Assembly: GCA_949296425.1 (NCBI GenBank)
Contig: CASFPN010000024.1
Coordinates: 7,071-71,070 of the forward strand
Length of the DNA stretch: 64,000 bases
Reading direction: 5' to 3'
DNA from: an uncultured bacterium
Lineage (GTDB): Bacteria > Cyanobacteriota > Vampirovibrionia > Gastranaerophilales > Gastranaerophilaceae
Shown: positions 9,098 through 56,572 of the stretch, one piece after another
Numbering within the stretch: the stretch's first letter is position 1
Layout of the letters: each line of letters opens with the position of its first letter
The notes under the pieces: generated by a model
What the model saw: the letters and a program-made list of their open reading frames with translations, nothing else
Told to the model about the DNA's origin: nothing
Databases searched by the model: none
Program-made: the position numbers and the translations under genes

Positions 9098-9850
9098 ATG
9101 AAAAAACAAGGGTTTACTTTAGCGGAAGTGCTCATTACTTTGGGTATTATTGGTGTTGTAGCTGCATTAACTATTCCGTCTTTAGTTTCCAAGTATAGAA
9201 AACATGTAGTTGAAACTTCTCTAAAAAAATCATATTCCGTTTTATCCCAAATCCTTGAACGCTCAAAGGCTGACAACGGGGATGCTGTTAATTGGGATTG
9301 GAGTTCTTACACAGCCTACCAAAAAGATTCATCAGAACAATTTTTTCAAATATACTTTTACTCGTATATAAATATAACAGGCAGGGCAAAATCTGTTCAA
9401 AGCCCTAATCTATTGGATTATAAAATTTATACATCGGTTGACGATACATCGGGCAGTCCTAATTGGTTTTACTATAATGGCAACATGGCAGACTGGGTTG
9501 AACTTCCTGACGGAAGTGTTGTTTTATTTAATTATCAATACACGGGACTACAAAATTTATACGGCAATTTCACAGTAATTCTTCCGAGTTCTAAAAACAA
9601 AAAGAAATTAATAGTGGGTAAAGATGTTTTCGATTTTTCTTTACGTAATTACGGAAATAATATTGTTGTATCGCCATATAGCTGGCAAGATTGGACATGC
9701 AAAGATATAGATGACAACAAGGAAAATTATTTACGGGCTTGCAAAGGAGAAGTTACAAGCGGTGCAGGTATCAATTCCGGCAACTATTGTACATCAATAA
9801 TTTACTGTAACGGTTGGAAAATTCCTGATGATTATCCGATTAGGCTTTAG
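9098..9850 (+). CDS. Type IV pilin-like protein (short leader)
   Basis: MKKQG|FTLAEVLITLGIIGVVAALTIP N-methylation motif with Glu+5; C-terminal Cys residues. Confidence 0.9.
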   Translation: MKKQGFTLAEVLITLGIIGVVAALTIPSLVSKYRKHVVETSLKKSYSVLSQILERSKADNGDAVNWDWSSYTAYQKDSSEQFFQIYFYSYINITGRAKSVQSPNLLDYKIYTSVDDTSGSPNWFYYNGNMADWVELPDGSVVLFNYQYTGLQNLYGNFTVILPSSKNKKKLIVGKDVFDFSLRNYGNNIVVSPYSWQDWTCKDIDDNKENYLRACKGEVTSGAGINSGNYCTSIIYCNGWKIPDDYPIRL

Positions 9851-18786: not shown

Positions 18787-19720
18787 TTACAACCCCAAAA
18801 AATCATGCCAGTAATCACCGTCGCCGTCAGGGTTTTTGTTCATAACAGCATAAGGGGTGCAGCCATAACCGAGATAAATATCCGTACTTTCTTTTGAGGA
18901 CAAGGTACAAATTCTTGTATCATGGTCGCCTTCAGGAACAGGTTTTACATTGTTATCTTCTGTTATTTTAAAGGTATGAATATCATAACCGACTCTGTTC
19001 GGCCCTTTTTTAGGTCCGTTTATATCAACTATAAACCAGTGATAATTACCTATTAAAATACAGGTGCCGTCGTTAAGCATAAAAGCTTTTTCTGCGGAAA
19101 TAGCCCCTCGATGTATGTAACCGGCACCTGTTAAATTCTTCCATCCACTTCCACTAATTCCACATTTAGTGTTAATGTTATCTTTTTCACAAACAGTTCC
19201 AAGCATTATTTTTGCGTACGTTCTTGTTTGATTCATTAGGATTTCTGCTCTCTGAGAAACATCATTATCATATGAAAAATCATCATACGGAGATATTCCT
19301 TGTGCAACGAGCATTCGGGTTGCATTAGAAATACTGGAATATGCTTTTTTCAACTGCGATTCAAAAACCTTAGCACGGTGATGAGAGATTAAAGTAGGCA
19401 GAGTCATGGCTGCTACTACACCTATAATGCCGAGGGTGATTAAAACCTCTGCAAATGTAAACGCAGCTCGATGTTGCCTGTTCGGCAGGGCTACGTGCGT
19501 AGCACCCCTCTCCCTTAATCCCTCTCCCGAGAGAGGGAAAAGATTTACGATACTTGCTTCGCTTCTTTGCCTCTTGACATCTTTGCATCTAACAACGAGA
19601 TCCTGAAACAAGTTCAGAATGACGTAAATAGCTTGACCTCTTGACCTCCTGACATCTTGACCTCCGATTAGCAAGCAAGCCCCCCCCCCCGAAGTTACAT
19701 TTTTTAATAAATTTTTGCAT
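18787..19720 (-). CDS. Type IV pilin-like protein with long leader, frameshifted at a poly-G tract (putative phase-variable, OFF)
   Basis: RBS and ATG at 19720, 19 nt after the der stop; G11 tract from codon 11; body has AA|FTFAEVLITLGIIG and VDINGPKKGPN..G.D motifs; in frame with 10 G. Confidence 0.8.
19597..19623 (-). repeat. REP-like palindrome inside the pilin leader
   Basis: GTCATTCTGAACTTGTTTCAGGATCTC on the minus strand; related copies at 449-488, 29347-29403 and 50984-51050. Confidence 0.75.
19680..19690 (-). repeat. Poly-G tract (11 nt)
   Basis: C at 19680 plus ten C at 19681-19690 on the plus strand. Confidence 0.97.
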
Positions 19721-19738
19721 AATCTACCCCTTTCTTTT

Positions 19739-46275: not shown

Positions 46276-47105
46276 TTATGGAAGGCTTTCCCAGTAACCT
46301 TTTGTTTCATCATCGGGATTTTTGTCAATAACAGCATAATGAGCACAGCCAAAGCCGTTTGCCGACTGATTTGAATAAATAGAACAAGGATAACCGGCTA
46401 TTTCTGGATATTCTATATTTCCGTTTTCCAATTCATCATCCGTATAATGACGTGTTTGCTCAAACGGTTTAAGAATGTCATTTTCATCTATATAAAAGAA
46501 AAATATATCATGCCCGAGTAGGTTCGGCCTTTTAGCACCGTTTATATCAACTGTGAGAATTATATAATAACCGTTAATTGTTACCTCAAAGCACATACCG
46601 TTTGCAAGTGCTTTTTCAGGCTCGGTACTGCCTGAGTATAAAACATTTGCTTGTGCAGATTTGTTGTAATTCAGTGTTTTATTTTTATAATTGCATTCTC
46701 CAATTACTTTTAGTTTAGAATATTTATAAAATTTTTCGTAAAATTCATCAGCCTTTGGATATTTACCTGTACTTTGATCATATATTGTATAAATTGCTCT
46801 TAAATCTCCGCCTTCTTCTTGACGCAGATTCATAACCCCCTGGCTAAGAATAGAAAAAGCTGCTTTAAAAGCTGTTCCAAGCTGCTTATTTTGAATTTTA
46901 TTTATCAAGACCGGCATTGTCATCGCCGCAACCACACCTATAATACCGAGAGTGATTAAAACTTCAGCTAACGTGAATGCGTATTTACGTTGACAGACCG
47001 GCAGGTCTACGTGCGCAGCATCTCCAGTCTTCCTGCAGTCTTTGCATCCTGCGGAGCCTAAAGTGCCCCCCCCCCGAAGATCTGATTTCCTAATATCTTG
47101 TTCAT
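46276..47105 (-). CDS. Type IV pilin-like protein with long leader, frameshifted at a poly-G tract (putative phase-variable, OFF)
   Basis: AAGGAG RBS and ATG 47105; G10 tract from codon 11 gives MNKILGNQIFGGGAL-stop; 11 G joins YA|FTLAEVLITLGIIG; VDINGAKRPN..G.DIF. Confidence 0.82.
47066..47075 (-). repeat. Poly-G tract (10 nt)
   Basis: Ten C at 47066-47075 on the plus strand. Confidence 0.97.
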
Positions 47106-47130
47106 ATACAGCTCCTTTCTTCGTTTTTTA

Positions 47131-47159
47131 ATTATAACAAAAATTAGGCTAAATTTCAA
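47131..47159 (-). promoter_or_regulatory. sigma70 promoter of the poly-G pilin gene
   Basis: TTGAAA-17-TATAAT with a TG extension. Confidence 0.7.
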
Positions 47160-55450: not shown

Positions 55451-56572
55451 TTATCTTATCTGTACTGGCATAATCAGGCAAACATAGTCTTCTTCATTAT
55501 TAGGTTTGAACATTGTTGCAGATAGCGGCGTATTTAAGCCGACTTTTACTTCATCCGAATCAATGTTTTTCAAAGCTTCAAGGACAAATTTGTAATTGAA
55601 CGCAATAGTTAATTCTTCACCTGTATAATCTATATCAATACTTTCTTCGGATTTACCGGAATCAGGTGTGTCTGCTGTCAATTTCAAATTATTATGGCTG
55701 AATTCAAGTTTTACAATACTTGTTTTTTCATTAACCATAATTGAAACACGCTCCAGCGCCGAAATCATCTGCTGAACATTTACAAGAGCTTCTTTTGGGC
55801 TTTCTTTCGGAATAAGCTGATTGTATTTAGGGAACTGGCCTTCCAGAAGTCTTGAAATAGTTGTTGTTCTTTCTGATTTGATTATTATTTTAGATTTTTC
55901 CGTATAAATTTTTACAGAATCTTCATCTATAAATCCGCTCATTTTAATAAATTCGTTCAATGTTTTTGATGGGATAATCAATTGTTTAGAGTGATTATCT
56001 TTGTTGTCAATTGTTTCGCGGACTCTTGCAAGACGGTTTCCGTCAGTTGAGGCAATTTCAAGAACATTACCCGATATATCACAGACAATACCAGATAAAA
56101 GATTACTGGATTCATAACTTGCAGCAGCAAAACCTGCCTGTTTAACGGCTTTTACAAACGGTCTTATTTCTATTTCAAAGCCTTCAGCTTCATTGACCTG
56201 AATATTTGTAAATTCAGGAGGAAATTCGGAAGCTGAAATACCTATGATGTCAAATTTTGAATTCTGGCAGGTTATATTTACAGACGTATGTCCTTCAGCC
56301 ATTTCAAATGTAATAAGCTTATCTCCGAGCTTAGAAACAATTTCATTAAGAGTTTTTGAAGGCAGTGTAATTTTTCCGTCTTCTTCAACCTGTGCATCTA
56401 CAAGGGCGGTTACAGTAAAATCAAGATCTGTTGCAACAAGTTTAATTGTACTTTTATCAATGGTTTCGATTAATATATTCAAAAGTACCGGCTGGAGAGC
56501 TTTTACAGAAGTAGCTCTTTCTACGATTTTTATCCCGTTATATAAATCTTCTTTTTTTACAACAAATTTCAT
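55451..56572 (-). CDS. dnaN: DNA polymerase III beta clamp
   Basis: ATDL, ASTDGNRLA, SRLLEGQFPKY, IAFN.KFVLEAL, LIMPVQIR; RBS before ATG 56572. Confidence 0.97.
   Translation of the reverse strand: MKFVVKKEDLYNGIKIVERATSVKALQPVLLNILIETIDKSTIKLVATDLDFTVTALVDAQVEEDGKITLPSKTLNEIVSKLGDKLITFEMAEGHTSVNITCQNSKFDIIGISASEFPPEFTNIQVNEAEGFEIEIRPFVKAVKQAGFAAASYESSNLLSGIVCDISGNVLEIASTDGNRLARVRETIDNKDNHSKQLIIPSKTLNEFIKMSGFIDEDSVKIYTEKSKIIIKSERTTTISRLLEGQFPKYNQLIPKESPKEALVNVQQMISALERVSIMVNEKTSIVKLEFSHNNLKLTADTPDSGKSEESIDIDYTGEELTIAFNYKFVLEALKNIDSDEVKVGLNTPLSATMFKPNNEEDYVCLIMPVQIR

Follow-up and report, generated by a model that had tools for sequence, protein, structure and literature searches.

A poly-G tract was reportedly found in 1991 by Jonsson et al. 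in the region of the Neisseria gene pilC that codes for the signal or leader peptide. The opa genes of Neisseria have repeat tracts in their leader-coding region (PMC3960869). These CTCTT repeats resemble the system analyzed here in that the slippage tract lies in the cleaved-leader part of dispersed surface-protein paralogs and in that each locus toggles alone and yields combinatorial expression, as we propose for the present genes. The opa loci number about 11, compared with about 75 tracts in the present genome and up to 165 in a relative, and Neisseria has at most 54 putative phase-variable loci per genome (PMC5953494). Unlike in Neisseria, the tract here is a homopolymer of one sharp modal length that belongs to the same DNA element in both gene orientations, shows strict leading-strand polarity and would gate type IV pilin-like proteins with very long leaders.

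In Bifidobacterium breve UCC2003 a G11/G12 tract lies between the ORF of a signal peptide and an LPXTG ORF and is subject to replication slippage (PMC9187656). This organism is also a gut commensal, and its G tract interrupts a pilin-precursor gene just after the part for the secretion signal, slippage at the DNA level yielding ON and OFF cells; it has two such loci, of sortase pilins, whereas dozens of loci, of prepilin-type proteins, are found here. A leading/lagging-strand effect was speculated upon in that study, which contains no family-wide module (PMC9187656). The sequence-only reading of our locus knew of no description of a 5' module conserved across a dispersed pilin family; the design has precedents in opa, pilC and B. 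breve, and it is the family-wide module that goes beyond the B. breve report.

Many intragenic G/C tracts are also present in Campylobacter jejuni, whose genome, like the present one, is AT-rich, measures about 2 Mb and shows a modal tract length. C. jejuni is not known to have MutS/MutL mismatch repair and its modal length tends to be ON, whereas the present genome has MutS and MutL and its modal length is OFF. The C. jejuni tracts lie in unrelated genes and have no shared flanks, unlike the tracts described here. Strain NCTC11168 has 29 loci (PMC4965091), and the modal length is 9, with an insertion bias at G8-G9 and a deletion bias at G10-G11 (PMC3401435).

No paper on phase variation or homopolymer tracts in Gastranaerophilales or Melainabacteria was found in our literature search. 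What is distinct here is the scale, the single module in both orientations, the default-OFF modal length and the leading-strand polarity, the last of which is new. We consider that the G10 tract described below is probably a phase-variation switch driven by replication slippage, with a modal length that is OFF by default.

Anatomy of the 47105 locus

The gene lies on the minus strand of the window, the whole stretch of 64,000 nucleotides, from an uncultured gut bacterium of the Gastranaerophilales, that was analyzed, and all of its features are given on that strand. A sigma-70-type promoter-like site (47131..47159; TTGAAA-17-TATAAT with TG before the -10) is near-consensus, with 11 of 12 matches, and a Shine-Dalgarno sequence AAGGAG (47112..47117), read from the sequence, stands 6 nt before the ATG at 47105-47103. 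The ATG opens MNKILGNQIF (10 codons), after which come the G10 tract (47066..47075), with TTC before it, CAC after it and conserved flanks, and then GCA CTT TAG, the stop being at 47060-47058. At this length the start codon commands only a mini-ORF, MNKILGNQIFGGGAL plus the stop TAG (47058..47105). The remaining prepilin leader, ..TLGSAGCKDCRKTGDAAHVDLPVCQRKYA (46978..47065), is open in the +1 frame alone, and is continued by the predicted mature pilin-like protein, FTLAEVLITLGIIG... to ...YWESLP, of 233 aa plus stop (46276..46977). Frame modelling gives 15 aa with G10 and a 276-aa ORF with G11 (or G8), made up of a 43-residue leader ending ...QRKYA and the 233-residue pilin-like protein, so that a one-unit change in the tract separates the truncated from the full-length product. 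The switch would sit in the stretch for the leader peptide, which is to be cleaved off. Translation starting at ATG 47105 would halt after 15 codons as long as the tract has 10 G (OFF), and the gain of one G would join the start to the leader and the pilin-like protein (ON).

From the stop that lies upstream, at 47130, as far as a GTG at 46935 within the hydrophobic helix, the pilin frame contains no ATG, GTG or TTG. An alternative start in that frame was considered and rejected, ATT 47094 and CTG 47004 alone being present and neither having a ribosome-binding site. An exact look-up of the 219-aa ORF started by the GTG gave no match, the called product (P0001) beginning four residues later, and the 276-aa ON product is absent from a collection of 5.8 billion proteins. 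The idea that the GC-rich leader contains a riboswitch or some other known RNA was rejected, as an Rfam scan of the window returned one tRNA and nothing else.

The window contains a second tract-bearing pilin-like gene on the minus strand (18787..19722; ATG at 19722-19720), with a long leader and FTFAEVLITLGIIG, whose tract (19680..19690, minus strand) is G11 in the present allele and would be in frame as G10 or G13. Both tracts begin 30 nt after their own ATG, right after TTC. Apart from this G10 (47066-47075) and this G11 (19680-19690), no G/C run in the 64 kb reaches a length of 8, and shuffles of the window give 0.17 such runs. In other strains (L093-L100) the 19720 locus has the canonical TTC-G10-CACTCG and needs 11, while the present genome has a rearranged G11-CTTG allele (19665-19690) that is one base shorter than G10-CACTCG. 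A C-terminal motif, GC..YA..NPD..YW, is common to both tract genes and missing from the short-leader pilin-like genes at 9113 and 30615.

These results bear out what the sequence-only reading had said of the locus: the promoter, AAGGAG, ATG, ten codons, ten G and quick stop; the 43-aa leader and 276 aa obtained with 11 or 8 G; the lack of an in-frame ATG, GTG or TTG from the tract to the hydrophobic helix; the equal tract position in the 19720 gene; the uniqueness of the two runs in the window; and the C-terminal type that sets the tract genes apart from the two short-leader pilins.

A palindrome, GCTACGCACGTAGC (coding for ATHVA), was observed in the leaders at window positions 46990-47020 and 19485-19505, and it recurs in the leaders of homologues P0003, P0016 and P0019. 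The leaders of homologues also contain tandem units of about 20 residues that repeat the cleavage-site region (AFTLAE-GATHVA..RR-AAFTLAEV).

The product as a type IV pilin-like protein

The N_methyl family (PF07963) matched the product with 23.6 bits, against a gathering cut-off of 21.2, when ten leader residues were included. The mature end reads F-T-L-A-E, with Glu at +5, while residue -1 of the cleavage site is Ala (Ala-Phe) instead of the usual Gly; in the paralogs this residue is G, A, S or V. The leaders of the tract genes, with 43-170 residues, are long for prepilins. An AlphaFold2 model based on 44 homologues (pLDDT 91.4) has a 53-residue N-terminal helix (residues 4-56) followed by a beta-rich head of mixed helices and six strands. 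Foldseek found no PDB match to the model with E < 0.6, the head resembling no solved pilin nor any other solved structure. Homologues of the product number more than 7,600, and one of them bears the name Candidatus Gastranaerophilales at its source. The genome also encodes a prepilin peptidase (Peptidase_A24 match at C20:20668-21057, 35.5 bits), and the precursor would presumably be cleaved at Ala|Phe. Because the tract codes for Gly4 or Pro4 in a segment that the prepilin peptidase would remove, a change in its length would leave the mature protein unaffected.

Tract-bearing genes across the genome

The genome (G000; 2.0 Mb, 34.7% GC, 46 contigs) contains 2817, 394, 46, 7, 4, 5, 73, 7 and 4 G/C runs of lengths 4 to 12, respectively, a spectrum that decays in the ordinary way to length 7 and then shows an isolated spike at 10, with lengths 7-9 nearly absent. 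The prediction that many more paralogs would be found was exceeded, as at least 83 pilin-like ORFs were counted, and in 53 the leader contains a G/C tract. The core of the tract region, TTC-G10-CA(C/A)T(C/T)C..AGCT, is one DNA element that occurs in both gene orientations, and the tract, which lies within the leader, codes for GGGG where the gene reads the G strand and for PPPP where it reads the C strand. Its distance from the ATG ranges between 18 and 69 nt, and all three codon phases occur. The same module, TTC-G10-CA at about 30 nt after the ATG, would gate about 60 of the pilin-like genes here and thousands in the genus as a whole.

Frame states were modelled for the 59 tract-bearing genes that have a clear ribosome-binding site and ATG, which provides the table of tract length and frame that the sequence-only reading had called for. 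Forty-four of them (about 75%) have G10 or C10 and need exactly +1, five need -1 and eight are in frame, three of these last being G11 and three or four having regained the frame through flank indels of 1-2 nt (for example C14:1547, which is without CA). The median ON length of the genes needing +1 is 308 aa and that of the OFF peptide 17 aa, and the OFF copies hold intact downstream frames of 250-600 aa. In a genome of 35% GC the maintenance of these frames suggests purifying selection, which we count in favor of a switch.

The alternative in which the genes are decaying pseudogenes, each frameshift being an inactivating mutation that became fixed in a family with redundant members, would account for most copies being out of frame in every assembly and for the few that are short or have extra indels (C15:99642, C16:108141, C44:109300). 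It is, in our judgment, highly improbable, since it has to explain how a single base, at one and the same position and with the same direction of shift, disrupted 44 genes that kept frames of 250-600 aa, why the pattern is kept in 55 of 60 species, and why in-frame alleles of the same loci exist in other samples. The expectation that OFF copies would not be decaying thus held, with intact frames of median 308 aa, and a slippage switch remains the preferred reading of the frame states.

Some irregular tracts were also observed. One pilin-like gene has two tracts, a G10 after the start (C44:75900) and, 127 nt further on in the leader, a G11 (C44:76027); C42:63262 has an extra C beside the tract; and at the locus C17:17279 three samples (L057, L059, L061) have G10-ACTTC, with the flanking C missing. 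Indels therefore strike the bases flanking the tract as well as the run itself, as seen at C14:1547, C42:63262, C17:17279 and the 19720 locus.

Alleles of the same locus in different samples

Because a look-up based on the OFF product favors OFF alleles, the search for alleles was repeated with aroB and other neighbor genes as keys instead of the pilin gene. All 12 reliable assemblies have G10 at the 47105 locus, and they come from at least four studies and represent several SNP haplotypes; a further contig end at this locus (L037), of low coverage and consisting of poly-G debris, was left out of the 12. Three sister loci are G11, and in frame, in the present genome and G10 in most other metagenome assemblies of the species: C22:11367 is G10 in two other assemblies, C42:72628 is G11 also in ERZ24773392 and G10 in two others, and C20:37726 is G10 in six other assemblies. 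Two further loci that are OFF here have G10 in every assembly compared. Alleles of 10 and 11 at the same locus therefore exist in nature; ON alleles are the minority, and which loci are ON differs from one population to another. Over 1,550 nt, ERZ16268292 matches the window without a single difference, and so it appears to belong to the strain of the present genome; the two nevertheless disagree in tract length (G10 and G11) at two loci, a mismatch that hints at heterogeneity within one population.

We infer from these observations that switching occurs within populations and, given G10 in 12 of 12 assemblies at the 47105 locus, it is from the sister loci that switching there is deduced. The idea of independent toggling of each copy is supported by three sister loci with G10 and G11 alleles, but not by the 47105 locus, which is uniform. 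Two scans of JGI metagenome contigs, one for the 47105 locus and one for a generic type-1 module, gave no match.

The allele data also bear on whether the tracts are artefacts of sequencing or assembly, the true tracts being longer or in frame and poly-G handling yielding 10. Poly-G is difficult for Illumina chemistry, as the debris at the L037 contig end illustrates, and many contigs end at or near tracts; yet the same length was obtained in MEGAHIT-type, SPAdes-type, scaffolded and Logan assemblies from at least 10 samples, and the same pattern in a single-contig genome of 1.87 Mb (G044). Moreover, identically flanked G11 alleles exist within the same assemblies, the frame-compensating flank indels agree with the called lengths, the other genes of the window are intact, and an artefact would not track the replication strand. 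We give this explanation very little credit, even taking into account one species (G053) that has G11 and G12 and no G10, and we continue to read the tract lengths as real.

At C20:37726, the comparison with L047-L052 revealed an identical promoter, ATG and tract followed by a different downstream leader (for example CTAGAGATAAGTCAAG vs CTAGGCCTAGGATCAG), the leaders looking as though they had been swapped with those of other paralogs. This pattern suggests that paralogs have exchanged sequence at the conserved leader module, by recombination or by gene conversion.

Distribution in the genus and the order

Across 60 species of the genus, C-Gn-C was found 165, 2464, 161 and 51 times for n = 9, 10, 11 and 12, respectively, with G9 and G11 equally frequent and G10 making up 87% of the tracts, an apparent peak that is sharpened by consensus assembly, which reports the mode of the population. 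G10 tracts are present in 55 of the 60 species and number as many as 165 in one genome. Among 201 genomes drawn from the order, the tracts are concentrated in the present genus and occur also in a few genera of the same family, while the other nine families in that draw have no tracts, with one single exception. Two tract-free species of the genus have 3 and 11 pilin-like matches, with short canonical leaders, and the tract-bearing species have far more such matches than these.

In the closed relative G044 (a single contig of 1,867,336 bp) 19 G10 tracts need +1, two G11 are in frame and five G9 need -1, which amounts to the same ON phase. A different picture was observed in G053 (10 contigs; 49 pilin-like matches), whose tracts are G11 and G12, with no G10 (loci L106 and L112) and one G12 in frame; either this species has another modal length or its assembly technology miscounted homopolymers.

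Polarity of the tracts and direction of replication

The 75 C-flanked tracts of G9-12 in the present genome are distributed over 28 contigs, and in all 28 the tracts of a contig lie on one strand, which is the G-rich strand in 27. Contig C43 provides a clear case, with six minus-strand and two plus-strand pilin-like genes and the G run on the plus strand in all of them. Composition alone was rejected as the source of this polarity: G/C runs of 4-9 have strand ratios of 0.3-2.5 and no consistent direction. In the closed genome G044, 35 of 36 tracts are on the leading strand, with plus-strand tracts extending from 1.358 Mb through position 0 to 0.239 Mb and minus-strand tracts from 0.257 to 1.074 Mb; where the tracts change strand, which happens at about 0.25 Mb and again somewhere between 1.07 and 1.36 Mb, the GC skew switches sign as well, and dnaN is at 1.198 Mb. 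The sole tract on the wrong strand (G044:C1:653876), a G9, lies inside a patch of 20 kb where the GC skew is inverted, possibly the trace of a recent local inversion. At most one strand flip was found per large contig in G012 and G064, and at most one per listed contig in G041, G042, G043, G100 and G165.

In the window, dnaN (minus strand) is at 55829-56572 and the cumulative GC skew has its minimum at about 50-58 kb, which places both window tracts to the left of the origin; their G runs are on the leading strand of leftward replication. We also observed that the position of dnaN adjoining the skew minimum is consistent with an origin that the sequence-only reading had proposed at 56.7-57.0 kb. 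Since the G run is on the leading strand, genes codirectional with the fork carry a sense G10 and head-on genes a sense C10. The polarity is independent of gene direction and points to a link of the mechanism with replication rather than with transcription or translation.

This result bears on the possibility that the tracts are sites of programmed recoding, in which G10 or C10 would be a fixed functional state and some transcripts or ribosomes would slip by one, either through transcriptional slippage or through -1 ribosomal frameshifting on G GGG GGG or C CCC CCC, with all genes expressed constitutively at a low level and the G11 alleles being up-mutants. Such an explanation would suit the uniformity of the system, namely a length of 10 needing +1 in about three quarters of the loci and prevailing across the 60 species, the unvarying state of the 47105 locus in 12 assemblies and the conserved tract flanks; ten nucleotides is, moreover, about the length of the RNA:DNA hybrid in transcription. 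We nevertheless regard it as rather unlikely. The polarity of the tracts tracks replication, whichever way the genes are transcribed and translated, neither the spacing from the ATG nor the phase of the tract is constant, the RNA 3' of the 47105 tract has a fold no different from that of shuffles (z = -1.19) and hence no structure beyond composition, and G11 alleles and frame-restoring flank indels are present as DNA. The signature of programmed -1 frameshifting, a slippery heptamer in fixed phase with a stimulatory structure, was not found, and neither was that of transcriptional slippage (at least 9 A or T, with transcribed-strand polarity), the run being of G/C and following replication. 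Insertions arising during transcription in E. coli and in Buchnera were found in A/T runs alone and not in G/C runs (PMC5574713). The polarity, together with the occurrence of sense G10 and C10 and the variable phase, therefore favors a process at the DNA level over frameshifting or transcriptional slippage.

The proposed slippage, its limits and its possible significance

We propose that DNA replication would be the process that sets and changes the tract length. Ten would be the modal, resting and OFF length, and 11 would be reached by +1 and lost quickly, with a few loci at 11 in each population. A modal OFF state with a few loci at 11 would make the family a large and mostly silent repertoire of surface filaments that cells sample stochastically. 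We infer that the default-OFF state would be maintained through a bias of insertions and deletions around length 10, and variation of adhesins or of phage receptors would be a possible adaptive role.

Passive slippage alone fails to explain that 87% of tracts are at exactly 10, that the DNA sequence of the TTC and CA flanks is conserved in both orientations and that G9 and G11 are equally frequent; the switch reading does not account, either, for the absolute polarity or for the persistence of the tracts at 10 in the presence of MutS and MutL. Loss of mismatch repair was ruled out as the cause of the instability, MutS, MutS2 and MutL all being encoded in the genome, and MutS and MutL should damp slippage, which counts against the switch reading. 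Given these features, a dedicated or lineage-specific mechanism may be at work, and G10 may be decoded with some leakiness. In one such mechanism, the tracts would be substrates of a replication-coupled and sequence-specific setting of length, in which the leading-strand TTC-G10-CA is recognized and about 100 loci per genome are held at 10, and the move to 11 would be directed or regulated, by means of a dedicated factor or of a replisome or mismatch repair peculiar to the lineage. We consider this unlikely and retain replication slippage as the probable basis of the switch.

If this is true, the genus would have the largest repeat-driven phase-variable repertoire per genome known to us, with 27-165 tracts in about 2 Mb, in a common, uncultured lineage of the human and animal gut that is related to cyanobacteria. 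It suggests that stochastic variation of surface filaments, for instance as a defense against phages or IgA, is found in commensals as it is in pathogens. By their strict polarity, sharp modal length and shared flanks, the tracts also offer a direct test of how replication asymmetry sets the rate and the direction of homopolymer slippage. Annotation pipelines call the tract genes truncated or hypothetical, and the pilin repertoire is therefore systematically under-reported.

Tracts outside the pilin-like genes

Sites at which a T run is followed by a G run were observed at C17:56210, C23:9101 and C44:88479 (T5G12, T8G12 and T9G9, respectively). They lack the pilin-leader context and are a different kind of homopolymer site, possibly associated with promoters or terminators. 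In the closed relative, an element present in six copies outside pilin genes (G044:C1 at 94238, 134218, 139657, 513957, 525425 and 1620336) reads GGAACGGCACGTTCC..TC-G10-CAATAGTCTAAAAC and has the same G10 with the same replication polarity.
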